64,000 nucleotides of DNA from Waterburya sp. Its GTDB lineage: Bacteria > Cyanobacteriota > Cyanobacteriia > Cyanobacteriales > Xenococcaceae. Shown here piece after piece: positions 32,857 to 51,081 of the stretch. Location: assembly GCA_965217895.1 (NCBI GenBank), contig CBDCJV010000002.1, positions 352,001-416,000 on the forward strand, read 5' to 3'. The position numbers were made by a program, and so were the translations under genes. Under the pieces are notes generated by a model. That model was not told the DNA's origin. It worked only from the letters and a program-made list of their open reading frames with translations, and made no database searches. Each line of letters begins with the position of its first letter. Position 1 is the stretch's first letter.

Positions 32857-33286
32857 CTAGCATTATGAACATGGGTTAACAGAGTATCAGTTGTCCATGT
32901 TGCTATCCCACAACCAAGAAAATCACGATCAGTTGTCCAAATTGCTGCCTTTATGGCTAATGCTAATGCCAAGTAAACCAATCATTAGGGTCGCGAGGAA
33001 TGCGATTTCTGGCAACGGTTTCGTAGTCAGAATAAACCTTATGAGGTAATATTTTTACTTTCGCTTCAGCCAAAGTGATCGCCGAGGCTAACAAATTTGC
33101 TCCCACTACCTGAGAAAATACACCTTTATCAATCATCTTCTCGATTCTTTTATTCAGTTCATAACTTGTTTCTGACCAAGCTTGTTCCGCCATGTAAAGC
33201 TCTAGTTCGCTTCGAGCAATTAATTTTCTGCCTCGCACTCTGATTAACTCAGCTATCAAAATATTGGCATCAACTACTAAACGCAT
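32853..33286 (-). pseudogene. PIN-domain toxin, frameshifted
   Basis: MRLVVDANILI...RDPNDWFT, then a 1-nt loss near 32971; the other frame continues ALALAIKAAIWTTDRDFLGCGIATWTTDTL..NAS* to 32853. Confidence 0.85.
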
Positions 33287-33300
33287 TGTTTATTGTTTGT

Positions 33301-33549
33301 TTATTGTTCTTCTTGAGATAAATCCAAAGCACGAGCTAGAGTAGCTTCATCCATCCCACTTTCTGCAATCGCTGTCTCTACGGTTTGATTCAGTCTTTGT
33401 AATGCTTCGGTGATTTCGATTTCTTCTGATTGTTCTACGGGTATATAAAAACCAACTAATTTGCCATGACGTTTAACTGCTACAGCTTCAGAACTAGCTA
33501 AATACTGAGATGCTTTATCTCTAAATTCTCTGATGCCAACGCTTTTCAT
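33301..33549 (-). CDS. Phd/YefM-like antitoxin
   Basis: MKSVGIREFRDKASQYL...VKRHGKLVG; AGAGGA RBS before ATG 33549; immediately upstream of the PIN gene. Confidence 0.8.
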   Translation of the reverse strand: MKSVGIREFRDKASQYLASSEAVAVKRHGKLVGFYIPVEQSEEIEITEALQRLNQTVETAIAESGMDEATLARALDLSQEEQ

Positions 33550-33576
33550 GATGCTTCCTCTGTTTGTTATTTGTTT

Positions 33577-33600
33577 TTTTGTGGTCATTTTGTGGTCACA
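33577..33600 (-). promoter_or_regulatory. Candidate toxin-antitoxin operator
   Basis: TTTTGTGGTCA x2 (11-bp period), ending in near-palindrome TGTGGTCACA. Confidence 0.5.
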
Positions 33601-36323: not shown

Positions 36324-36833
36324 ATGAAAGTTCGAGCCGAAAAGCCAGAAGATGTAGAAGCTATTCACAGAGTTAATGTCGCGGCATTTGGACGAGAGAG
36401 TGAGGCGAATTTAGTCGCTCAGTTGCGAGGTGTTGCCTCTACATTTTCCTTTGTTGTTGTTGAATCTGAGCAAATTGTCGGACACATTTTCTTTAGTCCA
36501 GTTACGCTTAAAGGTGAATGTGCTGATGATTTACTTGTTCTGGGACTAGCACCAGTAGCAGTGCTACCCGACTATCAGCGACAAGGAATTGGGTCATTGC
36601 TGATTCAGCATGGTTTAAAAGAATGTGATCGGTTCGGTTTCAAAGCTGTTGTCGTGCTGGGTTCTCCAGAATACTATCCACGATTCGGGTTTACTCCAGC
36701 CAAGGAGAAGGGATTGAAATGTGAGTACACAGGGTCAGATGAGGCGTTTATGTTGTTGGAGTTAGAAAATGGTGCATTGGAGAACTGGGTTGGAACGGTA
36801 AAATATCGGTCAGAGTTCGACAAACTTGAGTAG
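36324..36833 (+). CDS. GNAT N-acetyltransferase (YhbS-like)
   Basis: LAPVAVLPDYQRQGIGS, VLGSPEYYPRFGF. Confidence 0.9.
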   Translation: MKVRAEKPEDVEAIHRVNVAAFGRESEANLVAQLRGVASTFSFVVVESEQIVGHIFFSPVTLKGECADDLLVLGLAPVAVLPDYQRQGIGSLLIQHGLKECDRFGFKAVVVLGSPEYYPRFGFTPAKEKGLKCEYTGSDEAFMLLELENGALENWVGTVKYRSEFDKLE

Positions 36834-36857: not shown

Positions 36858-37208
36858 TTACTCTAATTCCAGCTTTAAAGAAGGCATCAGTCGTTGCAAA
36901 TTTTTGAGAGATTTTCCTTGCCAGGGATTTTTTTTCGCTCCAATTACTACCATTTGAATGTTCTTAGACTTACGAACTTTAATGACGAACTTGGATAAAA
37001 TACTAATTCCCGAACTGTTAAGAAAACTTAAATCTTTTAGATCTAAAACAATCTTTTCTGGTTCTTGTTGAGCAATACTGTCTAGCAACTCAGAAATAGA
37101 AGCATATTCCTCACTTCCATTAAGGCGCAACGAACCGTCAAAAACAACGTTGTGGGATGTTTCATCGTAAATAATATTATAGCTTTCAGTTTTAATTTCC
37201 ATAGCCAT
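36858..37208 (-). CDS. Slr1659-family STAS-like protein
   Basis: FDGSLRL; LDLKDLSFLNSSGIS (STAS phospho-Ser motif); PWQGKSLKNLQRLMP. Confidence 0.8.
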   Translation of the reverse strand: MAMEIKTESYNIIYDETSHNVVFDGSLRLNGSEEYASISELLDSIAQQEPEKIVLDLKDLSFLNSSGISILSKFVIKVRKSKNIQMVVIGAKKNPWQGKSLKNLQRLMPSLKLELE

Positions 37209-37414
37209 CTCAAAAAAAAAATAATTTGATTAATTAACTCAATTGTTTACGACTTTAAATTATTTAAATAAAAACTAAATAAGACACATGGTAAATATCT
37301 TGAACCAAAGTCAAAAAACCAAAATAGGTAATTTAAATTTGTAGTTTATTTTTATAACCTGTTTTTTCGATCACCAACCAGCTATTTTAGCCTTTAAACA
37401 GAAAAACACTCAGC

Positions 37415-38017
37415 TTAAATAGCTAACTGTACCATTGTCGTCACAGCAACTTCATTAGACTGTTTAGGTAAGGGAGCAAATTTCCAGCCTAATTTTGCTC
37501 CATAATCATTAAGCATGGTTAATAAGCCTAAGCCTGATTCTTCAGCATTTTCTTCTAAAGCATTTTTTTCAAGTTGAGCAAGATATAGCTCTTGAGGATC
37601 GGCCTGAAGCAAAAATTGAATATGATTTTGAAAGTGTTTAGTTTGTTCAGCCTGTATGCTGTTGGTTAGTTGAAAAGTAATTAAGTTTGGATTGAGATGA
37701 ATTTGAATACTAACTGGAAGTGGCGACATTTCTACGCCGTATTTCATCGCATTTTCTAATAGTTCATTGGCAATATAGCTAACGGCACTTTTTACTTCAG
37801 CTTGCTTATCAGAATCTGGCTGGCGATCATCATTACCCAGAAAAAAGGTGCTGAGATAATCAGCCAAGAAATCTGCCGACAAACAATTATTACGCCATCT
37901 CTGACGTAGAGGAATAGAGCCTGGAGAAAAGCTGAGGATCAAGTACTCTTGACTAGAAGATAAATCTTGAATAAAGTCTCCCAGTATCTTTTCCATAGCA
38001 ATGTTACTAGTGTTCAT
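37415..38017 (-). CDS. Slr1658-family (SiaB/anti-sigma-kinase-like) HATPase protein
   Basis: RWRNNCLSADFLADY; ANELLENAMKY; SGLGLLTM. Confidence 0.8.
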   Translation of the reverse strand: MNTSNIAMEKILGDFIQDLSSSQEYLILSFSPGSIPLRQRWRNNCLSADFLADYLSTFFLGNDDRQPDSDKQAEVKSAVSYIANELLENAMKYGVEMSPLPVSIQIHLNPNLITFQLTNSIQAEQTKHFQNHIQFLLQADPQELYLAQLEKNALEENAEESGLGLLTMLNDYGAKLGWKFAPLPKQSNEVAVTTMVQLAI

Positions 38018-38062
38018 ATAGATAGTTCATATATATAGTGAAATTTAAATTAACGCCCAATG

Positions 38063-39811
38063 CTACTTCTGTTTCAACACAACTAAAGTGATGTCATCGT
38101 ATACTTTCTCTACTCCGATATGCGATCGCACATCTTGAATCACTGCTTGCCTTATATCCTTAGCCGACTGCTGCCAATTTTGCTGTACCACCCAACATAA
38201 TTGTTCTAGTCCATAATGCACTCCCAAATGGTTTTCTGCCTCTGTAATTCCATCGGTGTATAGTATTACTACATCTCCAGGATTTAAATACACTTGAGCT
38301 TGAAAAACAAAATCTTTAATTGTTTCTTCTAAGCCAATGGGAAAGCCTAGATCGATTGTATCTACCCTTTCAACTTCACCTCCTGAGCGAACTACAACCA
38401 TTTCTTCATGTTGACCACTAAGGCTAAGTACCCCATCGTGATAATCTACCAAACATAAAGAAAGATTTTTATCTGAATCCATACGCTGGACATTTTTGTA
38501 GATAGTCCGATTTAGCACTTCAAAAAACCGCTTAGGATCGGTTTCATTATTTTCCATTAAGGTACGAACTGCTGTTTGCACCATCAACATCAATACTCCG
38601 CTTTCTAAACCATGTCCCGTGACATCACCAATGCCAATAGTGATGCGTCCGTGATGTTGCAGCACATCATAATAATCTCCCCCAACTTCATCAGCAGGTT
38701 CCATAAATCCCGCAATTTCTAACTCTTCAATTTGACTGAGTTCTTTTTCTTTGGGCAAGAGCATCATTTGCAGACGCTGGGTTACTTCTAATTCCGCACT
38801 CAAACGGCTATTCTCGGCTAGTAAACGATTATTAAGCTGGCTAATTTGCTCGTTTGCCTTAGCCAATTGCCCTAAATAAGAAGATTCTCGATCTCTTAGT
38901 CTTTTTTGCTCTAGGCAAGCTCCTAATCTGGCTTTTAATAATGTGGGATTAAAAGGTTTAGCCAAATAATCTGCTGCACCCATTTCGATACATTTAATCA
39001 CGCTATCAACTTCATCGAGAGCCGAAATCATGATCGTAGGAATGTGTCGCCAAGAACCCGAACGAATCCATTTGAGGACTTCATAGCCATTAATTTCTGG
39101 CATAATGATATCCAGCAAAATTAAGTCATAAATTCCCGTTTGGATCATTCTGATCGCCTGTTTGCCGTTAACAGCAGCGATCGCCTGATAACCCTGTGCC
39201 TGAACCTGACGAGCTAGCAAATCCCGATTGGCTGGATTATCATCAACAATCAAAACCTTATAGCTGCTGGTATCTAAAGGATCGTTATTGGCAGCGATTA
39301 GACTGGCTGAGTCGAGAATCAAGTCTATTTCTAGAGAGTTGTCTTTGATTTGTGGGGAAACAGATGTTAGACAGTTAAACTTCGTTTCGGGAATTGAAAT
39401 ATTAATTAAATTACTTATTTCTTGCAAGAGTTTATTGGCGGCGATATCTATTTTTTTGATGTCGGCAATAAAGTCTGTTTCTATTAGAGGAATCAACTGC
39501 TGGCAATAATTAATTACCTGCTGAGTTGGTTGTTCTAAGGCAATTTTTAGCTGAGGATTAGTAACAATCTTATTTAAATCCAATTCACTGTCTATTAATG
39601 GCTCAGGATTTAAAAAACTATTAATCGAAACTAACAATTTAGTCCCACAGTCGCGAATAGACTCTAAATTAGGCAGATATTCTACGTCTGCTAGGTCTTC
39701 AACTTCTTCTATCAGCATCTCACTGTAGCCAATGATGGCATTAATCGGCGTGCGTAATTCGTGCCGTAAATGAGCAAGAATGGATAACTGGGATTGACTA
39801 TCTGTGGTCAT
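38063..39811 (-). CDS. HisKA-REC-PP2C (SpoIIE) phosphatase
   Basis: [18 protein letters not shown] with no ATPase domain; REC LLDIIMP; EVGGDYYD, GDVTGHG, YTDGITE, DDITL. Confidence 0.9.
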   Translation of the reverse strand: MTTDSQSQLSILAHLRHELRTPINAIIGYSEMLIEEVEDLADVEYLPNLESIRDCGTKLLVSINSFLNPEPLIDSELDLNKIVTNPQLKIALEQPTQQVINYCQQLIPLIETDFIADIKKIDIAANKLLQEISNLINISIPETKFNCLTSVSPQIKDNSLEIDLILDSASLIAANNDPLDTSSYKVLIVDDNPANRDLLARQVQAQGYQAIAAVNGKQAIRMIQTGIYDLILLDIIMPEINGYEVLKWIRSGSWRHIPTIMISALDEVDSVIKCIEMGAADYLAKPFNPTLLKARLGACLEQKRLRDRESSYLGQLAKANEQISQLNNRLLAENSRLSAELEVTQRLQMMLLPKEKELSQIEELEIAGFMEPADEVGGDYYDVLQHHGRITIGIGDVTGHGLESGVLMLMVQTAVRTLMENNETDPKRFFEVLNRTIYKNVQRMDSDKNLSLCLVDYHDGVLSLSGQHEEMVVVRSGGEVERVDTIDLGFPIGLEETIKDFVFQAQVYLNPGDVVILYTDGITEAENHLGVHYGLEQLCWVVQQNWQQSAKDIRQAVIQDVRSHIGVEKVYDDITLVVLKQK

Positions 39812-39858
39812 AACATAGTTTCAATAAATAAAAAATTAGTTAAATTACAATCAGGAGG

Positions 39859-40227
39859 TTAAGTTACTTGAATAAAAGTTTCGATTTTAGCTAGTAAGCG
39901 AGGTAAATCGATCGGTTTCGTATCGTAATCATCACAGCCAACTTCTAAAGCTTTTTCGCGATCGCCAGCCATAGCGTGAGCAGTCAGAGCAATTATTGGA
40001 ATAAACTTAGTAGCGGGGTCTGTTTTAAGATTTTTGGTAGCTTCCCAGCCATCCATTACAGGCAAACTCATATCCATTAAAATTAAATCAGGAATTTCCA
40101 AACTAGCCTTTTCTACTCCTTCTGCTCCATTAACCGCTATCACTACTTTATAGCCTCGACGCTCCAAACGTCGCGAGAGCATATCTCTATTCATTTCGTT
40201 GTCTTCGACTAGCAGTATTTTGGACAT
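39859..40227 (-). CDS. Single-domain response regulator (DivK/CheY-like)
   Basis: LLVEDNEMN, LMDMSLP, ALTAHAM, TKP. Confidence 0.93.
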   Translation of the reverse strand: MSKILLVEDNEMNRDMLSRRLERRGYKVVIAVNGAEGVEKASLEIPDLILMDMSLPVMDGWEATKNLKTDPATKFIPIIALTAHAMAGDREKALEVGCDDYDTKPIDLPRLLAKIETFIQVT

Positions 40228-40281
40228 AATTTTAAGGGAATTAACTTAGATACCCGATCGAGTATTTACAAGTATTTAGAT

Positions 40282-42483
40282 TTACGTAGAAAAAATAGTA
40301 GAAATTGACTGTTGATTTACTGAATTTTGCTGACGAGAAATCACTTCATCTAAAAGGTTTGTTACTTCGTCTAATAATACTGAGCGTTGATATGAACCTT
40401 TCTCAAAAATTTTACTGACTCCTCCATTCAATTTCTGACGATCCTTGGCGGTAATTGTTTTAGCCGTCAAAATAATTACGGGAATAGAGTGCCATTTTTG
40501 GTGCTGTTTAAGGCGGTGAACCAATTCAAAACCATCCATTTCTGGCATCATCAAATCGGTAAGAATCAACTTTGGTTCATGATTTTGTAACTTAATTAAT
40601 GCTTCTCGTCCATCTTTTGCCTCGATTACTTTCCAGTTTTCTTTTCTCAATTGACGACAAAGCATTTCTCTGACTCCAGGGTCGTCCTCTACCACCAAAA
40701 TTGAATCAGAATCGGAAACTGGTTTAAACTTATGCAGGATCATTTCTAATTTTCGACTATCAATTGGCTTTAATAGGTATTCCGCAGCACCTAAGGCATA
40801 ACCTAAATTTTGATCGTCAACCATAGTCATCATAATTACAGGAATATCTGCGGTTTGAGGATTAGCCTTGAGAGCCGTTAAAACTGACCAACCATCCATT
40901 CCAGGCATCATCACATCCAAAGTAATAGCCTCAGGGCGCAGAGATTTAGCCAAATTTATTCCTTCTAGACCGCTGAGGGCAGTTTGAATTTCAAATCCCT
41001 TTTTCTCAAAAAATCGCTGTAATAAATCGTGAACTGTAGGATCATCGTCTATGACTAAAATTGTATTTTTTTTGGTAGAGTCATTACTTTTGAGAGGAAA
41101 GCTTTCTTGAGGTTGATTGGACTTTTCTTTATTTGTATCGACTACCTGAACTGGAAGATTAATTGTGAAGGTAGAACCCTTGCCTAACTCACTTTCCACC
41201 TTTATATCTCCTCCCATCATCTGACAGAATTTTTTGGTGATGGCTAAACCTAAGCCAGTTCCACCATACTTACGAGTGGTTGAAGCGTCAGCCTGACTAA
41301 AAGCCTGGAACAGTTTACCCATTTGCTCTTGATTCATGCCGATGCCTGTATCGGTAACTTTAAAAGCAAGATATTTGTGATCTTTTGCCGTGTAAGAAGT
41401 TACATCTAAAGTGATAGTACCGTTTTTGGTAAATTTGCTGGCATTACTGAGAAGATTAAACAAACTTTGACGCACCTTAGTCAGATCGGCGTGCATGACA
41501 TCTAGATCGTCCGCCAAATTGAATTTCAAAGTATTACTATTTTTCTCAATCAAAGGGCGAATGGTAGATACTGTCTCGTTGATTAGACTTTTGATTTCAA
41601 AAGTTTCTAAGTACAGTTCCATGCGACCTGCTTCAATTTTCGAGAGGTCGAGAATATCGTTGATTAGAGTAAGGAGATGTTTACCTGCACCATGAATTTT
41701 GTTGAGGTCGGGAATAAAATCATTTTGCCCAACATCTTCTGCTTCTTCCATCAGCATCTCGCTATAGCCAATAATGGCATTCATGGGGGTACGCAGTTCA
41801 TGACTCATGTTGGCTAAAAACTGGCTTTTTGCCTGGTTAGCTTTTTCTGCCTCAGTCATGGTTTTTGCCAATTCGGCAGTCCTTTCTCTGACTCTGATTT
41901 CTAAATCTTTTTTTTGCTGTACCAACTCTACTTGAGCTTGACGGAGAGTTTTTAGAGTCCGAGAAAGCTTATTGGTTCGCTCTTCGACTCTGTTTTCTAA
42001 TTCTTGATTTAACTTGAGCAAAGAGCCTTCGACTCGTTCTCGTTGCAGGATCTCTTTTTTGAGCATTCGGTTTTGCCCTTCTAAGGTTCTAGCAAGGTTA
42101 CGCAACTGTAGTTGAACTCTAACTCTAGCAAGCACTTCTTCTCGCTGAAATGGCTTGGTTATATAATCAACTGCACCGATCGCAAAACCTCTAACTTTAT
42201 GTTCGGTATCTGATAAAGCCGTCATGAAAATAATCGGTACATCAAAGGTATCGGGATTTGCCTTAATTCTTTGGCAAGTTTGATAACCATCAATCCCTGG
42301 CATCATTACATCCAGCAAAATTAACTCTGGTTTATAATACTGCACCTGCTCGATCGCCGTTTCACCATCGATCGCCACTGCCACCTGAAAGCCAGCCCTG
42401 GTTAGAGTTTCTGATAAAACTTCTAAATTATTATGATTGTCGTCAACAATTAAAATGCTGTGGGAATTAGAATTTTCCGTCAC
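40282..42483 (-). CDS. Cytoplasmic hybrid kinase REC-HisKA-HATPase-REC-REC
   Basis: [20 protein letters not shown], three receivers each with Asp. Confidence 0.93.
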
Positions 42484-42550
42484 TTGTCTTACTCCATTAA
42501 GCCTATATATTTTTGAGATTTTTTAAAGTTCGTAATTATCAACCTGGTTT

Positions 42551-45397
42551 TTATAAAAACTGTTCTATAAAAGATTTGATTTGCCTTAATCTAAATCCCT
42601 TTGCTAAATCTCTCAGGGTTTGAGTAAACGGTCTAAACTGGGGGTCTAGCTCTTCGATGCGATCGATTTCTTTAAGCAGATCGTTGATTAAACCTTTTCG
42701 ACTTAGATCATGAAGCATACTAACTTCTTCAGTAGAAGGAGGAATAATTTCTCCTTCTTGAATCGCCAAGACTATATCTTCAGAGACTTTTCCTGGTTCG
42801 GCGATTGATTCTGCCTGTTCATAGATCCACTCTAGATTGAGATGCTTTTGCAACAACTGCAAGAGAACTTCTTGCTGTACTGGTTTAGGTAAAAAATCAT
42901 TAGCACCAGCATCAAGGCTTTTCTGGCGATCGCTTTCAAAAACATTAGCCGAAGAAACAATAACTACTAAATCAGTAGCTACATCAGAAGAGGTGCGTAA
43001 GCGTGCCAGCATTTCGTGTCCATCCATCACGGGCATAGTTAAATCTGTAATAATCACATCTGGCTGCCACTCTATTGCTTTGGCTATACCTTCAGAGCCA
43101 TTTTCTGCTTCCATCGTCTCAAAGCCTATTGGTTCTAGTAAGTTGACCACTACTGAAGTGTTTTCCCAGCGATCGTCTACAACTAATATTTTTCTTCTAG
43201 CACCTTTAAGCGAGACTTGCCCTTGCGCCTGAAGGCGACGCGGGCTTCCTCGCTCAAAACCAATAATTTTTCCTTGGACAGCAGCAAGACGATTTGTTTC
43301 TTGCCAACTAGCTGTTTCTTTTAATTCAATCTCAAACCAAAAAGTAGATCCTTTATTTAGCTCACTTTCTACCTGTAGTTTTCCTCCCATCATCTCGACC
43401 ATTTTCTGGCTAATGGCTAATCCCAAACCTGTGCCTTCCGATTGTTTTTTGACGCTACCTACTTGTTCAAAAGGCATAAAGATTTTATTGGCATCTTCAG
43501 GGTTCATGCCAATACCGCTATCTTCTACCGCGAAACGGATACGATGAAGTCCCCCTAAATCTCCCTGCTGATTTTCGACCATCAGCCTAACGCTACCCGT
43601 CTCGGTAAACTTGACTGCATTACTTAATAGGTTTATTAGCACTTGGCGCAATATTTTCTCGTCAGCTTCTATGCCTATGGGTAAATTAGGATCGCTTTGG
43701 TAACTAAAGTTGATTCCTTTTTGTTCAGCTTTGATCTGACAAATTTCTACCACCCCTTGCAAGAAAGAAGGAAAATGAAGCTCAACAGGATGAAGTTCCA
43801 TTTTGCGTGCTTCGATTTTGGCAAGATCTAAGATATCGTTAATTAAGGTCAGTAAATGCGTTCCACATTGATTAATAATATCTACCCCTTTTCGCTCTTT
43901 ATTTTCTAGAGAGCGAGACTGCTGAAGAATCTGAGCGTAACCTAAAATGCCGTTGAGGGGAGTTCTTAATTCATGGCTCATATTAGCTAAAAACTCGCTT
44001 TTGGCTTGGTTGGCAGAGTCAGCAACTTCCTTAGCTTCTTTTAACTCTGTCGTTCTTTCTTCCACTCGCTTTTCTAGTTCGATATTGGTTTCGGCTAAAG
44101 CATTAAAAGAAGAGCGTAGCTGATCTGCCATGCGGTTAAATGAACTACCTAAAACACTAAGTTCGTTAACTTTAATTTTTTCATCTACTTTTTGATCTAA
44201 CTTACCACTGGCGATCGCTTCGCTTGCCCTATTTAACTGTAAAATTGGTTTGGTGATCCAGCGAGAAGTATAAAAACCAGAAGCGATCGCAATTCCTAAT
44301 GCCAATAAACACAGCATAATCGTCGAGCGAGTATTAGCGTTAATCTGCGCCATAAAGTCAGATTCAGGTACCGCTATAACCACTACCCAATCCAGTCCTA
44401 GTTCATCTTGCCAAGGTGCAACTTGAACAAACTGACGCTCGCCATTTAATTCAAAATCGAGCTGTTGGGAGGTTTTAATTTGATTTAGATTGCCAAACTT
44501 TTGCTCTAGATACTGAGCAGTATTTTTAATTAGGGGATCTTCACTCTCAATCGCTTTTAAACGTTTTGGTTTACCTGCGACTATTTGAAATGGTTTTTCA
44601 TCGGCAGAATCTCCAATCAATAAACCATCTCGTTCCATAATAAAAGTCCTACCTTTAGGACTCACCTGGAGATTACGCAAAAAATCGCTAATTTGCGAAA
44701 GCTGCTGTTCGATTGCTACTACTCCCACAAGCTTTTTATTCTCATCGTAAATAGGGCGACTAGCAGCTACAGCTAAGGTATAAGGTTCTACTTCCCAGTT
44801 GTAAACGGGACTCCAAGTAGGCTTACCCTTTTTAACCGCAGCTTGATACCAACCCTCTTCCTCAAAAGGATAGCTGCCAATATCTTCTAGTACCTTAGTC
44901 CGATTTCCTTGGTCGTCTGTTTCCCAGATATATACATGATCGTTCTTATTCTTTTGCTGATTAATGACTCCAATTATGGGAGGTTTATCATCATAGTAAT
45001 AACCAGATGAAACTAAGTCTCCTGATTCAAAGCCATAAAGCACGTAACCAATATCAAATAACTGCATCTGCTTCCAAAAAAGCTGTCCTAGCTTTTGGAA
45101 ATCTTTAGCACCCAAAATTTTCATATCAATTAAATCTGATTCGATCTGCACTACTTTGGGAGGGCTAACCAAGTAGCTATCTAAGTGCTGATCGATACGA
45201 CCACTAAACTCATTACGTAATCGGTTAGCCATTTCATTCACTGCCTTTTGTCCATTACGTAAAGAAAAATATCCAGTCAATCCCACCGCCATAAATATCT
45301 GCAATACAAAAGGAATAATCAAAACGCTGCGTAATTTGACCTTTCTTCTTACAGCTAGGCTTTCTTCAGATTGGATATTTTGTAGTTTAGAAGTCAT
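42551..45397 (-). CDS. Membrane dCache-HAMP hybrid histidine kinase
   Basis: TM, Cache ([22 protein letters not shown]), [24 protein letters not shown]. Confidence 0.92.
43208..43255. repeat. 48-bp palindromic dispersed repeat, in frame in the kinase
   Basis: AGCGAG..CTCGCT arms around CCCTTGCGCCTGAAGGCGACGCGGG; second copy at 54079. Confidence 0.75.
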
Positions 45398-45544
45398 TAA
45401 TATTAGGTCAATAAAATTTCATATATTCACTTGTCAATATGATGCCCAAATCAAACTAAAAAACTCACAAAGAAAGAGCCTATGTAGATTGGCTCAATAG
45501 AAATACTAAAAATATTAGGTTGAGGAGTCCTTCATCCTTATCCC

Positions 45545-46168
45545 TTATCCCTCATCCCTTATTTGATTCTTACTTCTTTTCTGTAGTTTGGGCAACCAAA
45601 GCAGAATTACGACTATAGAATTAAAGGTAAATAAATATACTGGCTGTGCTGCCAACTCAACAGACCATTGTGTTAAAGCTAAAATATTAAATGTTCCCGC
45701 AGTCCAAAACATCATCCAAGAAAATAGATCTTCTGAATCTGGCTCTAAATAAGACTTTTTAATTGTGGGTAATGCCCCAAGAGAATCGATCGCAATACTA
45801 ATAGTAATAGCAATTAAAGGAGAGTCGTATATTTGCCAGAGAACAATACTAATTAATGCACCCAAGAGGCAGGTTCGATCGAATGTATTCCAACCACCTT
45901 CACCATACTTAAGGGATAGAACTGCAATAGTTATTTGACAAACTGCATAGGCACTCAAAAGCCACATAGTTTCTCTCGCACCAGCGTCATAGTTGCTGAT
46001 CGCCAGAACTATGCCTAATGATGCCCAGATTGACCAGCTTGCACGATTAGGACTGGTTTTCCCGTGAAAAATAGTAATTATGTAAGGAATAAACCCCAAT
46101 AAAGAGAATATGCCCGCACATAATCCCGCAATATTTCTTAAGTCAGACATAATAAACTCCATTAGCAA
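45545..46168 (-). CDS. About 7-TM membrane protein, PQ-loop/SWEET-like repeat
   Basis: Two similar halves: FIPYIITIFHGKTSPNRASW and ALPTIKKSYLEPDSEDLFSW; start may be ATG 46150. Confidence 0.6.
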   Translation of the reverse strand: MLMEFIMSDLRNIAGLCAGIFSLLGFIPYIITIFHGKTSPNRASWSIWASLGIVLAISNYDAGARETMWLLSAYAVCQITIAVLSLKYGEGGWNTFDRTCLLGALISIVLWQIYDSPLIAITISIAIDSLGALPTIKKSYLEPDSEDLFSWMMFWTAGTFNILALTQWSVELAAQPVYLFTFNSIVVILLWLPKLQKRSKNQIRDEG

Positions 46169-46185
46169 CTTTTAAAAATAAGCAA

Positions 46186-46211
46186 TGCTTGGTAATTAAA
46201 GCTACCAAGCA
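46186..46211 (-). terminator. Hairpin between the desaturase and membrane-protein genes
   Basis: TGCTTGGTA-N8-TACCAAGCA. Confidence 0.5.
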
Positions 46212-46246
46212 AATTTAAAAAATATATTTATATTTAGTTAATAGCC

Positions 46247-47287
46247 CTAGTAAAGGGTGATAAAAGAAACATCAACTGCACCGTAGAATTGCTCATAATT
46301 GCGATCGCCCATTTCACCAGAGGCATCACCTTGACCTGTAGCCAATCGAGCTAAACGATGGCGGTGATAGCTAGTTAGCTGTTGAGACAAAGACATATAG
46401 TTGACGGTTTGATTTTGAGCTAGTTCTCGATCTAGTTCGGCGATACTATGCCAGGGACACTTCATTACTGCATGATGGGCATTGTGATAGCCAAAATTCA
46501 AGGTAAGTAAATTGAGCCAAGGATAGCGACGGGATACTAAGTTTGAATAAGTGTGCAGTTGTTCATGATCGCGATCGCGCTTGGGTAGCTTTGTCCCCGC
46601 GGGGAAAGCTTCATAAGTATGCTGAAAAGCATCTAAGAAGCGCAATACTGTAATCATTCCCAGATAAGAGAGAAAATATAACAGTAGTGCCTTAACAGAG
46701 AAAATTCCTAATAAAATAAAAGCAGTTAATCTAATCGCAAAAATAAAGCTAATACGTTTGACCTGTTCGGGTTTGCGCCAATCTTTGATAATTCTTTGCC
46801 AGCGCGCCCAAAAAGCAACTACGGGAAAATAACACCACTCCAAGATAAAGATGACTTGGCGAATTAAAGGTGGTAATTTTTGTATGGCATCAGCAATATC
46901 AAAACTAAATACATCAACTCTATCGACGTGATGAGCTATATGTTGGAGGGTTAAAGCCTGTAAACCATAGTAACAGCCTCCATTCATCCAAACCATTAGC
47001 TGACCAAAGATAACGTTGCGATGACGAGCTTTAAAAATCGTACCGTGCATAAATTCATGAGCGAGGTACGCTGAATAAATTAGACTGTGGGTAAGAAACA
47101 CTACGCCCAAAATATTCAGCCAACCGTTAGCCACCATGAGTAGAGCTATCCCACCTATATATCCCAACAAGCTATAGGCAATGGCAACTTCATTCCAAAA
47201 CGCCTTTTGCTTGCTTACGTAGGAGCGATAATTAAAAGAGACAGGAGTAGCAATAGTCATGGTGAAATTATCCTTAGTTGCAATCAA
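46247..47287 (-). CDS. Membrane fatty-acid desaturase-family diiron enzyme
   Basis: His boxes HEFMH, HIAHH, HNAHH; likely start ATG 47260 (AAGGA RBS). Confidence 0.9.
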   Translation of the reverse strand: MIATKDNFTMTIATPVSFNYRSYVSKQKAFWNEVAIAYSLLGYIGGIALLMVANGWLNILGVVFLTHSLIYSAYLAHEFMHGTIFKARHRNVIFGQLMVWMNGGCYYGLQALTLQHIAHHVDRVDVFSFDIADAIQKLPPLIRQVIFILEWCYFPVVAFWARWQRIIKDWRKPEQVKRISFIFAIRLTAFILLGIFSVKALLLYFLSYLGMITVLRFLDAFQHTYEAFPAGTKLPKRDRDHEQLHTYSNLVSRRYPWLNLLTLNFGYHNAHHAVMKCPWHSIAELDRELAQNQTVNYMSLSQQLTSYHRHRLARLATGQGDASGEMGDRNYEQFYGAVDVSFITLY

Positions 47288-47303
47288 TAAAATGTGCCAA
47301 ATC

Positions 47304-48239
47304 TCAGTAAGATAAGCTGTTGATCGTGTTGTTTACACTTTTTGCTTTAGCCTCTAAAGACTCAGGCATAGTTTGAGATATGGCTTTTTCTTGAGCCAGT
47401 TCTAAACACTCAAGACGAATTTCTCTAAATAGACGTTGCTGTAATTCTACAAAAGAGCGGAATCCTTCTTCTGCCCAAACTTTCATCTGTTTTTCCGAAG
47501 CCGAACCATATCTTACCGCCATGTTCAAGGCATTCAAGGCAAATTCGCTATGCTCTACTTCAACTCCAGTACCATTATGCTTACTGTGAATTAAAATCCA
47601 AGACCAAGGTAGATAACGATGATCGTTAATTAATACAGGTTTTGCTTCCTGTCTAAGGTAGCGGTCGAAACCAATCCCTTCATTTTCGTAACGCACTACC
47701 ATGTCCAGTAAAGCATATTCGCGATCGCCCAATACTTCTGAAGCTACGTGAAATCCCATCGCTCTAACTAGAGAAGCCTCATCATCTATTTTTCCTTCAT
47801 AGGTTGAGATGACATCACGAATAACTTCTTGCAACCAACTAGGAATTTGAGCGAACTGATTACGTTCTTGAGGATCTAACTCAGCATAATCACCTACGGT
47901 TTTGACAGCAAACTGCGCCAAGGCTCGATGCACTGGTGTATTGTTTGCTCCCTCATCGGCTGCTGCGGACATTACTTGAGCCGCAATATCCATGCCTCGA
48001 TCTGCTTCTTCTTTGACTATTAGTTCAGGATTATTAAAAGTATATCTAGATAGACCGATAGTACTAGCTAATCTAGCAATCATCGCCGAGGCATAACCAT
48101 TAAAATGGCTGTATCTCTGGAAAAAAAGATAAAGAGCAACAGGATCTTTTACAACTAAACGCAGAGTAGAGGTAATAGTACCTTCAATTTGCTCAAAATC
48201 AAATAGATCGTGAAAAAAATCTTCAGAAAAAGTAGCCAT
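47304..48239 (-). CDS. Putative heme-oxygenase-like diiron oxidase (HDO superfamily)
   Basis: Helical protein with ligand pattern DEG..(x)..H, ASE and H...EVEH, as in CADD/UndA-type proteins; motif inference only. Confidence 0.6.
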   Translation of the reverse strand: MATFSEDFFHDLFDFEQIEGTITSTLRLVVKDPVALYLFFQRYSHFNGYASAMIARLASTIGLSRYTFNNPELIVKEEADRGMDIAAQVMSAAADEGANNTPVHRALAQFAVKTVGDYAELDPQERNQFAQIPSWLQEVIRDVISTYEGKIDDEASLVRAMGFHVASEVLGDREYALLDMVVRYENEGIGFDRYLRQEAKPVLINDHRYLPWSWILIHSKHNGTGVEVEHSEFALNALNMAVRYGSASEKQMKVWAEEGFRSFVELQQRLFREIRLECLELAQEKAISQTMPESLEAKAKSVNNTINSLSY

Positions 48240-48606
48240 CTTCTATATATATTTATTTATGTTATTGGTAATATGAGAGTTGTTTTTTTTCTTCTCTATG
48301 GCGATTGTCTACGCTTGGGAATAAAAAAACTGTGATCTCAATAGAGAAAAACTGATTTTAAGATCATTGACAAAGACTAGAAAATTAGATAAGAAATGAT
48401 GATTACACTAAGAATAAATGTTTTTACTGAGCAACAGAAATAGTTTTTTAAACTTAAGATAAATTATCAAGCAATAAATATATTATTTTTAATAAACAAA
48501 ACAACTGGTGCGATCGCAATCACAAAATAGAATTAATTTAGCTATCAAACTGTCAGGCGTTTGATTTAATTAGCTTATTAATCCTCTAGAAGTAACGCTC
48601 GAGAAT

Positions 48607-49179
48607 TTAAACAAAAAAGCTGTCTTGCATCATTGCCTGCTTGAGCAATTTTTGATATTTTGCTCCACTAATTACCTGAGAGCCAAAACGCTCTAAATGA
48701 GGATTTTGCATTTGAGCATCAAAGACAATATATTTTCGCTGACGCAGATGCTCGACTAGTTTAACCATTGCCACTTTTGAACCTTCGCTAAGGCGATAAA
48801 ACATCGATTCACCGATAAATGCTCCTTTGATCGCAATACCTAATATTCCTCCTGCAAGGCGATCTCCCTGCCAAGTTTCAAAACTATGCGCCCAGCCTGC
48901 CTGATGTAAAGCAAGGTAAATTTGGATTAAATCTTCAGAAATCCAGGTTGTGTCGCGATCGGCACAGCCTTCGCAAACTGATTTAAAATCGCGATTGATG
49001 GCTACGGAAAACCGTTCTTGGTTCAATACCCGTTGTAAAGATTTAGGGTAACGAAAGCGATCGTCTAAAGGTATTAAGGTACGCTGGCGACTAGAATACC
49101 AGTCCAATCCATCATCATCAGACATTAAAAAGTAACCCTGACTATACCCTTCAACAATTGAAGAAACATCAATTTTCAT
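48607..49179 (-). CDS. aat: Leucyl/phenylalanyl-tRNA-protein transferase
   Basis: TWIS..Y..LH..GWAHSFETW, FIGESMF, SKVAM, NPHLERFG. Confidence 0.93.
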   Translation of the reverse strand: MKIDVSSIVEGYSQGYFLMSDDDGLDWYSSRQRTLIPLDDRFRYPKSLQRVLNQERFSVAINRDFKSVCEGCADRDTTWISEDLIQIYLALHQAGWAHSFETWQGDRLAGGILGIAIKGAFIGESMFYRLSEGSKVAMVKLVEHLRQRKYIVFDAQMQNPHLERFGSQVISGAKYQKLLKQAMMQDSFFV

Positions 49180-49309
49180 CTTTACTATTATTATCTATTT
49201 CCTAATGGAGATGTTTCAATTTAAAAATAACTGTATTAAATTATTAGTTACTCATAATATTAAGTAATTAATAACTTCTATAAATTCAACATAACAGAAC
49301 AAATTAACC

Positions 49310-49648
49310 ATGAAAGACTCTACTCAACCAATTGCTCCCATCACTTTGCCAGATGTAAAGCATCCAGAAAAAGAAGAAGAATGGCTCAAAAACTCTTTAC
49401 ACAAGTGGCTAGATGAGGAATTTTTACCCGAAACGGTTAATGGCAAAATAGCTCAAAGGGCATCAAAGATCTTTGTACGTCAGCGTATGGAGGGAGAAAA
49501 CGACTTGGGTTCATTAGTGATTGCTATCATTGCTGAAATGCGAGCGTTTGATTTTAGTCGCAGTTTTTATAGCGAATTTGCCGTCGCTAATGCCGTAAGT
49601 GATTTAATTTTAGCTAGTCTAGGTATAGATCGCTGTTGTGGTGGATAA
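49310..49648 (+). CDS. Hypothetical protein
   Basis: WLDEEFLPE..RQRMEGENDLG; clean ATG ORF. Confidence 0.75.
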   Translation: MKDSTQPIAPITLPDVKHPEKEEEWLKNSLHKWLDEEFLPETVNGKIAQRASKIFVRQRMEGENDLGSLVIAIIAEMRAFDFSRSFYSEFAVANAVSDLILASLGIDRCCGG

Positions 49649-49667
49649 CTTCAATAATCATTGAGCA

Positions 49668-50930
49668 ATGAGCAAATTTAACTGGACAAATGATTGGAAA
49701 AATCGGGCATCAAAAAATATAGATGATGCTACGCGACATTTAAAAAATTTACTTCCTATTGATCGCGTTGCGGAGAAAGCAATGGATTGGTTTAGCGTTA
49801 GTGATGAAAAAGTAGCAGAAATTCTAACAACCGTTAGAGCCAAACTGCCTACAACAGAAGCATTGTTGATTGGTAAACCTCAAGCTGGTAAAAGCTCAAT
49901 TGTTCGTGGGTTGACGGGAGTATCAGCAGATATTGTCGGGCAAGGATTTCGCCCCCATACTCAAAATACACAAAGGTATGCTTATCCTTCAGAAGATCTA
50001 CCTTTGCTTATCTTTACAGACACTGTGGGATTAGGAGATATCGATCAAAATACCCAAACTATTATTGAAGAACTAGAACAAGAATTAAAACAGGAAAGCC
50101 AGTGTGCCAGAATTCTAATTCTGACGGTTAAAGTGAGTGACTTTGCGATCGATACTCTGCGACAGGTAGCCGAAGAGTTACGCCAAAATTATCCGACTAT
50201 TCCTTGTTTGCTAGTAGTTACTTGTCTGCATGAGGTTTATCCTAGCGATGTGGGAGATCATCCAGAATATCCCCCAGATTATGAAGCTGTTAATCGCGCT
50301 TTTGGGGCAATTAAAAAAGACTTGGGGCAGCTTTGCGATCGCGCTATTTTAATTGACTTCACTTTAGAAGAAGACGAATACAATCCAACTTTCTACGGTT
50401 TAGAAGCGTTAACAGATGCTTTGGCTGAATTACTTCCTGAGGCAGAATCACGAACAATCTATCAGCTACTAGATAATAACGCTGGAGATGAACTAGGCAA
50501 TCTTTATCGAGATACTGCCCGACGTTATTTGGTAGCCTTTTCTACTATTGCTGCAACCTTGGCTGCTGTTCCTCTACCTTTTGCCACCATGCCTGTTTTA
50601 ACTGCATTACAAATATCTTTAGTAGGACTACTAGGCAAACTGTACGGACAGACTCTATCTCCTTCTCAAGCTGGAGGAATTGCTAGTGCGATCGCTGGTG
50701 GCTTTTTTGCCCAGGCTATAGGCAGAGAACTAATTAAATTCATTCCTGGTTTTGGTAGCGTCATCGCCGCATCATGGGCAGCAGCCTACACTTGGTCTTT
50801 AGGAGAGGGTGCTTGTGTATATTTTGGAGATTTGATGGGAGGTAAAAAACCAGACCCTAAAAAAATTCAGTCAGTCATGAAAGAATCTTTTGCCGATGCC
50901 AAAAAGCGATTCAAAAACGTTCAAAAGTAG
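49668..50930 (+). CDS. GTPase with YcjF/DUF697-like C-terminus
   Basis: GKPQAGKSS, DTVG; C-terminal AAVPLPF..KFIPGFG. Confidence 0.85.
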   Translation: MSKFNWTNDWKNRASKNIDDATRHLKNLLPIDRVAEKAMDWFSVSDEKVAEILTTVRAKLPTTEALLIGKPQAGKSSIVRGLTGVSADIVGQGFRPHTQNTQRYAYPSEDLPLLIFTDTVGLGDIDQNTQTIIEELEQELKQESQCARILILTVKVSDFAIDTLRQVAEELRQNYPTIPCLLVVTCLHEVYPSDVGDHPEYPPDYEAVNRAFGAIKKDLGQLCDRAILIDFTLEEDEYNPTFYGLEALTDALAELLPEAESRTIYQLLDNNAGDELGNLYRDTARRYLVAFSTIAATLAAVPLPFATMPVLTALQISLVGLLGKLYGQTLSPSQAGGIASAIAGGFFAQAIGRELIKFIPGFGSVIAASWAAAYTWSLGEGACVYFGDLMGGKKPDPKKIQSVMKESFADAKKRFKNVQK

Positions 50931-51081
50931 CAAATATTTTTTAGAGAAATAACAAAAGTTTTGAAACCCTGAAATATTAGTTATAAAAGGCTTTGAGAAA
51001 AATAGCTCGAGAAATATAAACAAAACATTAAATACTATCCTGAAAATTGGCTAATTATATTTATCTGGTCAATAAATTAAG

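Follow-up and report, generated by a model that had tools for sequence, protein, structure and literature searches.

We analysed a 64,000-nucleotide stretch of Waterburya sp. DNA (assembly GCA_965217895.1, contig CBDCJV010000002.1, forward-strand positions 352,001 to 416,000; hereafter the window), which carries nine co-oriented minus-strand open reading frames (ORFs) predicted to place a small-molecule enzyme, a transporter and a sensor kinase ahead of a phosphorelay and an Slr1658/Slr1659-type partner switch (Table 1). The first gene encodes a putative heme-oxygenase-like diiron oxidase (HDO). The ORFs lie where a first-pass annotation had placed them, with gaps of 43, 96, 147, 67, 54, 47, 45 and 206 bp, and for seven of the nine the domain content proposed there was confirmed by Pfam and NCBIfam: FA_desaturase; dCache_1-HAMP-HisKA-HATPase-REC; REC-HisKA-HATPase-REC-REC; REC; HisKA-REC-SpoIIE; DUF6272; and STAS. 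The likely start codons of two genes were corrected, that of the desaturase to the ATG at 47260 (giving 337 aa, the length of its homologs) and that of the PQ-loop protein to the ATG at 46150. The locus has a GC content of 38 to 40%, the same as the 64-kb window, and its gene order is kept across several cyanobacterial families and is therefore not due to chance. A promoter scan was uninformative (12 matches, with 32.6 expected by chance) and a terminator scan was at chance level (10 matches against 8.3 expected), so a stem-loop at 46211-46186 was not used.

Table 1. Genes and features of the locus, in the direction of transcription
Feature	Position	Strand	Basis or remark
Non-coding region upstream of the HDO gene, presumed promoter	48240..48606	-	Common to different cassettes; swap border ~48250
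HDO-fold dimetal oxidase of an unnamed family, 311 aa, proposed signal synthase	47304..48239	-	Fold and invariant ligands
Membrane His-box desaturase/hydroxylase, 337 aa	46247..47260	-	PF00487 E 1e-28, three His boxes
Seven-helix PQ-loop/SWEET-fold membrane protein, 201 aa, proposed exporter	45545..46150	-	Predicted fold, co-occurrence
dCache_1-HAMP-HisKA-HATPase-REC hybrid kinase, 948 aa, closing the swappable cassette	42551..45397	-	Pfam, pocket tally, clade
Cytoplasmic REC-HisKA-HATPase-REC-REC kinase, 733 aa, opening the constant relay	40282..42483	-	Pfam, phospho-sites intact
Single-domain response regulator, 122 aa	39859..40227	-	Pfam
HisKA(only)-REC-PP2C phosphatase, 582 aa, H17 the proposed phosphotransfer entry	38063..39811	-	Pfam, H-box tally
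Slr1658-family GHKL-type (SiaB/anti-sigma-like) Ser kinase, 200 aa	37415..38017	-	NF052618 265 bits, DUF6272
Slr1659-family STAS protein, 116 aa, phosphorylatable Ser motif	36858..37208	-	NF047705 160 bits, PF01740

The HDO of the window had no match in Pfam, NCBIfam, the PDB (searched by single sequence and by profile) or plasmid searches. It does not reach the cut-off of PF14518, which only 4 of 71 family members match, and weakly (best E 1.8e-4). Its structure model (pLDDT 91) aligned with HrmI (Z 18.8, rmsd 2.8, 216 aligned), Npun_F6505 (Z 17.9), CADD (Z 17.8), UndA (Z 17.4) and BesC (Z 17.2), and the top Foldseek matches were UndA, PolF and BesC (E 2e-3 to 5e-3); in the ESM Atlas unnamed clusters rank first, and heme-oxygenase-like proteins lead below 0.9. 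Six candidate metal ligands, E96, H104, E168, H218, E227 and H230, assigned by sequence order, are invariant in 64/64 close homologs and kept in 66 to 69 of 71 distant ones, and agree with the HDO motif E-H-X-H-D/E-H (PMC11363339, section 10). The protein thus has the predicted heme-oxygenase-like fold and the six-ligand motif, which upholds a call first made without library support, and iron- and O2-dependent oxidation is the predicted activity. It belongs to a family of 234 close and about 295 cluster-level homologs, among whose named records are proteins of Pleurocapsa sp. PCC 7319 and Nostoc sp. PCC 7107.

A wider search found the HDO in 13 of 301 genomes, giving 12 new loci with more distant homologs. 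One of these has HDO-desaturase-PQ (52%), one HDO-PQ, and one an HDO followed by a related Cache kinase; other neighbours include an FAD oxidase with a TauE exporter, an L-amino-acid ligase with a major facilitator superfamily (MFS) transporter, two pyridoxal-phosphate (PLP)-dependent decarboxylases, and a different desaturase. These neighbourhoods suggest amino-acid or amine chemistry with export, and the HDO product is probably a small, amino-acid-derived amine. The locus with the decarboxylases (L202:9384-13853), where the HDO homolog lies between the two in a compact amine-modifying cluster, may reveal the substrate of the family.

No Pfam match was found for the PQ-loop-like protein. Its model has seven helices (pLDDT 92) and aligned with cystinosin (Foldseek E 6.5e-4; Z 14.8, rmsd 3.1, 191 aligned), as well as with SWEETs (Z 13.8) and the KDEL receptor. 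With P22 and P128 invariant, the protein has the seven-helix (3+1+3) PQ-loop/SWEET fold and its repeated proline loops, so that here too the predicted structure bears out an assignment made earlier without library support.

HDO loci were gathered from a genome-collection scan (4 loci), a metagenome scan (16 loci), 401 genomes of the phylum (5 positive) and 61 genomes of the family (20 positive), 17 of these 61 missing our quality bar. After removal of contig-edge loci, a duplicate metagenome locus (L025) and a broken second copy (L067), 29 loci were informative, and 27 of them have the order HDO-(desaturase)-PQ-dCache kinase, a count that overstates independence because the genomes are kin. 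The two exceptions are L013, with HDO-desaturase-PQ and no sensor, and L015, in which a lone HDO (45%) precedes chemotaxis genes. The order holds across families at 53% HDO identity, and within the genus the trio is patchy (16/38). The PQ gene occurs in 18 of the 61 family genomes, every one HDO-positive; in the two HDO-positive genomes that lack it, the HDO lies no more than 200 bp from a contig end. The conserved core is the trio of HDO, PQ-loop protein and dCache kinase. That this trio is a chance neighbourhood kept by descent, its enzymes and relay functionally unrelated, would suit the presence of the switch without the enzymes in most genomes, yet such an origin is hardly credible given the order kept across families, the joint gain and loss, and the joint replacement of enzyme and sensor described below, and for the trio it is already largely refuted. 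Two genomes hold damaged copies: G448 (L064, L067) has a split desaturase, kinase and PP2C and a second, broken HDO, and G449 (L058) has an in-frame stop in the Cache region, either of which may reflect assembly errors or ongoing loss.

The first-pass annotation had proposed that the HDO and the desaturase form a two-enzyme pathway, citing relatives that make small oxidised, alkene or alkyne metabolites. The desaturase has the domain and the His boxes of membrane His-box desaturases; no solved structural relative was found. It is present in 13 of the 27 complete cassettes and absent from 14, and six HDO-positive family genomes have no desaturase match at E<=1e-20. An obligate two-enzyme pathway was therefore rejected, and we predict that the desaturase acts as an optional tailoring (or inactivating) enzyme. 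An alkene or alkyne lipid product also fits poorly, as the sensor pocket and the neighbouring genes suggest a small amine. As to a fatty-acyl substrate of the JamB/UndB kind, the neighbourhoods of desaturase homologs suggest small soluble substrates instead, and no acyl carrier protein, acyl ligase or polyketide synthase was found at the locus.

The periplasmic Cache domain of the sensor kinase (about residues 45-355) carries E181, W183, Y199, W201 and E230 at its pocket positions, as aligned to 6MNI. The 23 Cache domains linked to HDO genes form one side of a branch that separates them from 25 others (SH-aLRT 88, a value from a quick tree and below the starred level). E230 is found in 23/23 linked domains versus 2/21 paralogs. 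All 23 have Glu (E181) in place of the carboxylate-binding Arg and Glu in place of the terminal Asp, so that the dCache_1AA motif Y-R-W-Y...Y...D is not found in them. Compared with the amino-acid and amine motifs (bioRxiv 2023.04.06.535858), the Cache of the window keeps the two pocket aromatics and the terminal acid common to both; it differs from dCache_1AA in Glu181 and Glu230. In the alignment to 6MNI the Arg is lost, as it is in dCache_1AM, whose motif also includes the R103/D133 insertion of PctD; the linked Cache is no more than a candidate member of that group. By motif, then, the linked Cache is not an amino-acid sensor, and its predicted pocket is anionic. Glu181 and Trp201 are common to most paralogs; amines are therefore the probable ligands of the wider subfamily, and one particular amine that of the linked clade.

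This Cache clade is inherited with the enzyme. Domains at least 54% identical occur in 17 genomes, all HDO-positive, whereas the 41 HDO-negative genomes offer no full-length match better than 49% and one partial match of 50%, and none (0/41) reaches 54%. Two genomes (G346 and G660) have HDO-desaturase-PQ without an adjacent sensor, and each has an unlinked kinase with the pocket signature of the linked clade. The putative synthase and its candidate receptor are thus inherited together, as is characteristic of autoinducer circuits, with the ligand itself predicted. The same pattern bears on whether the product is mainly a weapon, a metallophore or a protective metabolite, the adjacent kinase being a hitch-hiking monitor or answering something else. 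HDO products include antibiotics and toxins (PMC11363339), distant homologs lie in enzyme and exporter clusters without a sensor, and a patchy distribution is typical of secondary metabolism. We nevertheless regard this as very improbable, since the HDO is accompanied in gain and loss by a Cache clade of its own, which is retained even where the two are unlinked, and the cassettes are minimal (one or two enzymes) with no obvious resistance gene.

Downstream of the sensor, the last two proteins scored above the cut-offs of their families (NF052618, slr1658_cyano, cut-off 200 bits; NF047705, slr1659_superfam, cut-off 100 bits) and adjoin a PP2C. In the window proteins none of the His and Asp phospho-sites is missing, nor are the acids of the PP2C or the serine motif of the STAS protein. 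The HisKA H-box of the PP2C (H17) is intact in 26/26 rows with an REC gene upstream (one a duplicate) and in one contig-edge row, and altered in 13/13 rows without such a gene (the His is lost in 11 and kept within an altered box in 2). These losses fall in at least two, probably three, places on the tree, one of them a clade of 12; in G447 a fresh deletion runs from aat into the relay and the PP2C His is replaced. Judged by comparison of these proteins, the dependence of phosphatase H17 on the relay is shown by its decay after relay loss.

Slr1658 is found in 49 of the 61 family genomes versus 20 for the HDO; the Slr1658/1659 switch predates the enzymes and is more widespread than they are, a family-level output. 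An Slr1658 gene lies downstream in 16 of the 21 cassette loci long enough to judge; in L010, L019, L026, L027 and L065 the cassette ends in other response modules or in nothing, and in the first four of these, outside the family, it feeds other response modules. The gene neighbourhood supposed at the outset therefore holds for the HDO-PQ-kinase linkage (27/29) and fails for the desaturase (13/27) and for an obligate link to the switch, which was rejected and which is better described as the output of one lineage. Outside the family, what precedes Slr1658 is mostly a PP2C with another sensor fused to it (ammonium transporter, HAMP or Cache) rather than this relay. In one family, f4 (L113:6467-8472, L114, L115, L118), a desaturase and a methyltransferase stand before two genes upstream of Slr1658/1659, one for a PP2C and one for an ammonium-transporter-PAS-PP2C fusion; this may be another enzyme and sensor input.

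We compared the DNA upstream of Slr1658 in two sets, 20 HDO-negative genomes of the family and 40 additional loci taken from among the best matches. G454 shares 91 to 97% identity with the window across aat, the relay genes and the STAS gene, including 91% in the REC-HisKA-HATPase-REC-REC kinase, and its DNA is 94% identical over 48252-51071, until about 12 bp before the HDO start. The stretch from ~48250 to ~42500 is different: here G454 encodes a methyltransferase, an HDO of PF14518 with an unassigned domain fused to it, an H-NOX protein and an HNOBA hybrid kinase (type B; the cassette of the window is type A). The borders lie at ~48250 upstream and near 42400-42550 downstream; a first blastn impression that the swap border falls inside the kinase gene was rejected, as the whole gene is replaced. 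The slot is thus a variable block within conserved flanks (94% upstream, 84 to 93% in the relay).

Type B also occurs in G426, which is not placed near G454 in the relay tree; no other of the 61 genomes has H-NOX. Outside these two, the order methyltransferase-HDO-H-NOX-kinase was found in 7/7 loci fetched from family f6 (7 of 8 positive genomes). The N-terminal domain of the type-B HDO matches CADD and BesC, not SznF, and its second domain has no Pfam family; the likeness to SznF is in outline only, and that identity was rejected. Release of nitric oxide (NO) is known from SznF-type pairs. The unit as seen in L089:6886-12758, L093:6644-12444 and L148-L154, with a second oxygenase-like domain (HxD...H pattern) fused to or divergent from the HDO, is conserved and is a candidate cassette for self-made NO or gas signalling.

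A type-B cassette that ends in a gas sensor would also suit a different role, in which a self-made and self-sensed product reports on the cell's own iron, O2, reductant or local diffusion (within a thick sheath or a baeocyte cluster) rather than on neighbour density. HDOs require iron, O2 and usually an auxiliary reductant (PMC11363339), and recovery from iron limitation fails in slr1658 mutants of Synechocystis (as cited in PMC7555055). Social selection for distinct signals, however, accounts more readily for the repeated exchange of chemically unrelated cassettes between close relatives, and the nonribosomal peptide synthetase (NRPS) reductase of the next cassette type would be a poor reporter of iron or O2; we consider such private reporting improbable.

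In five loci (type C), an adenylation-(methyltransferase)-thiolation-reductase (A-(MT)-T-R) NRPS precedes a different dCache kinase. Within the family this kinase follows such an NRPS in 7/7 kinase hits, two weaker hits lying in chemotaxis operons. Across L105, L106, L107, L130, L144 and L172-L174, a single-module A-(MT)-T-R NRPS always stands directly before one dCache kinase subfamily, and the type-C Cache is also found on two chemoreceptors (L175, L176). In all, small-molecule enzymes precede the sensor in 24 of the 26 loci that have the kinase-REC-PP2C relay and a visible upstream gene. As a control we inspected 22 paralogous Cache sensors, with neighbours judged by eye and by Pfam for 4: three had no visible upstream DNA, and the other 19 lay beside housekeeping, signalling or opposite-strand genes; one has a co-oriented NAD-dependent epimerase, and two have a divergent gene that probably encodes a methyltransferase.

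We think it rather probable that the locus is one of a set of interchangeable signal-synthase and receptor cassettes on one relay, resembling quorum sensing, in which an amine made by the HDO would be exported by the PQ-loop protein and sensed by the dCache kinase. In this mechanism the HDO, with iron, O2 and reductant, would oxidise a free amino acid or amine to a small, probably cationic nitrogen compound, which the desaturase might modify. The PQ-loop protein, to judge by its fold, would move the product across the inner membrane, and the product would bind the periplasmic dCache pocket of the co-inherited kinase, as their co-evolution suggests. Phosphate would then pass from the REC-kinase-REC-REC protein to the single REC and on to H17 and the receiver of the PP2C, presumably in that order, and the PP2C would set STAS phosphorylation against the Slr1658 kinase. 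Relatives would plug chemically unrelated synthase and sensor pairs into the slot, as dialects to the same output, much like quorum-sensing specificity groups. The make-export-sense idea of the first-pass annotation passes the comparative test proposed with it and is further supported by co-occurrence, a dedicated Cache clade and cassette swapping; it has to be amended as to the obligate two-enzyme pathway, the link to the switch and the nature of the product.

The linkage of enzyme and sensor is also expected of a sense-and-degrade operon or of one in which a sensor regulates its neighbours. The Cache kinase might detect an external amine that the PQ-loop protein imports and that the HDO and desaturase degrade or detoxify, with no self-made signal. 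PQ-loop/SWEET-fold facilitators transport in both directions, and the next-nearest homologs of the desaturase (41 to 47%) lie in an operon that looks made for uptake and catabolism in 5 of the 8 loci fetched, with a deacetylase, an NMT1-type ABC importer, an isochorismatase-like amidase, a short-chain dehydrogenase/reductase (SDR) and an AsnC regulator (seen, for example, in L163:6319-14983, L161, L162 and L165). Two relay loci (L140 and L145; type D) have NMT1-type binding proteins and no enzyme before the kinase, so the relay also reads outside signals in 2 of 26 loci. Against import and degradation, the enzymes that precede the sensors of the alternative cassettes are clearly biosynthetic (an A-T-R NRPS, a SAM methyltransferase), the characterised HDOs listed in PMC11363339 are biosynthetic, distant HDOs lie beside the L-amino-acid ligase and MFS transporter or the FAD oxidase and TauE exporter, and the locus has no transcription factor to induce a catabolic operon. 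On balance we hold this to be unlikely.

Further observations weigh against a self-made signal, together with the desaturase operons, the type-D loci and the generic expectation of enzyme-sensor linkage just described. PQ-loop folds also include a receptor (KDELR) and importers. A complete cassette was found in 0/12 of the more distant HDO loci, and L015 does not have the whole cassette either. The kinship of the genomes and the branch support of the Cache clade, given above, count on the same side. Desaturase-specific receptor sub-clades were looked for and rejected, as the presence of the desaturase changes four times on the tree and does not track Cache sub-clades; and in L001 the Cache region (window 44650-45250, 70%) is replaced beside enzymes that are 92 to 96% identical. 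Enzyme and receptor therefore do not co-evolve finely. For these same two reasons, type-A receptors probably read one core ligand. The recombination in L001 is limited to the Cache domain, with 70% identity to the window inside it and 92 to 98% around it.

A self-made signal would find its nearest precedents in two kinds of known system. In agr of Staphylococcus, a variable block of synthase and sensor kinase between conserved flanks defines communication groups. The same arrangement is described for comQXP of Bacillus (PMC4408185). The slot of the window is likewise a variable synthase and sensor block between conserved flanks, whereas the alleles of those loci are diverged versions of the same peptide system and those of the slot are non-homologous enzyme classes and sensor domains (dCache subfamilies or H-NOX); its output is a Ser/Thr partner switch, no peptide signal gene was found among the window-locus ORFs of at least 80 aa, and the cassette holds small-molecule enzymes. 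The second precedent is chemical: HDO-like and A-T-R enzymes help to make the diffusible amino-acid-derived signal valdiazen (PMC5878181), and the ham, pvf and mgo loci of Burkholderia and Pseudomonas share with types A/B and C the HDO-like and A-T-R NRPS classes that head them. The window locus differs in having no AurF-like N-oxygenase or NRPS among its ORFs, in a distinct HDO family with no sequence match to solved HDOs, and in having genes for a candidate receptor and a candidate exporter next to that for the enzyme; the main text of PMC5878181 nowhere uses the word receptor.

At the level of single proteins, the HDO shares its fold (Z 17-19) and E-H-X-H-E-H ligands with HrmI, CADD, UndA, BesC, PolF, SznF and AetD, and differs from the characterised HDOs in being less than 20% identical, in falling outside PF14518 and in the longer spacing H218-x8-E227. 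The output resembles Slr1658/Slr1659 of Synechocystis, SiaABC and RsbU-V-W in its trio of PP2C, GHKL-type kinase and STAS protein. The PP2C would take its input not from a sensor of its own, as in SiaABC and Rsb, but from a His-Asp relay acting through a kinase-less HisKA, and the locus has no SiaD-like cyclase or sigma factor; the SiaB family model NF038262 gave 24.6 bits against a cut-off of 85, and no GGDEF (SiaD) gene lies at the locus.

Two neighbouring features stand apart. A GNAT acetyltransferase gene (36324-36833) converges on the STAS gene with 25 bp between them; being missing at this place in G453 and G454, it is a recent insertion and probably outside the system. At 32963-33588, a PIN-like toxin and antitoxin-like pair (107 and 95 aa) was recognised by eye.

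A literature search, in a coverage without most subscription journals and supplements, returned no description of the window locus or its cassettes; the new element, as read from the compared genomes, would be an enzyme and sensor slot swapped between close relatives on one relay. To our knowledge, hardly any cyanobacterial signal is known that is self-made and has both a defined synthase and a defined receptor, and this locus names a candidate enzyme, exporter, receptor pocket and output switch. It opens an unstudied HDO family and hints at the ligand of a dCache subfamily that is abundant but still an orphan. The regulator Slr1658, itself poorly understood, may have one of its inputs here, and cyanobacterial H-NOX proteins an endogenous source of their ligand. 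The swapping of front ends suggests a cell-to-cell signalling system that has not been described before and that uses different chemical dialects. Only tentatively do we go further and suggest a quorum-sensing-like locus whose specificity groups would arise through whole unrelated chemistries (HDO amine and dCache, NRPS-reductase product and dCache, or a methyltransferase/HDO gas-like ligand, possibly NO, and H-NOX) that drive the same Slr1658/1659 switch, the HDO of the window then being a new class of autoinducer synthase.

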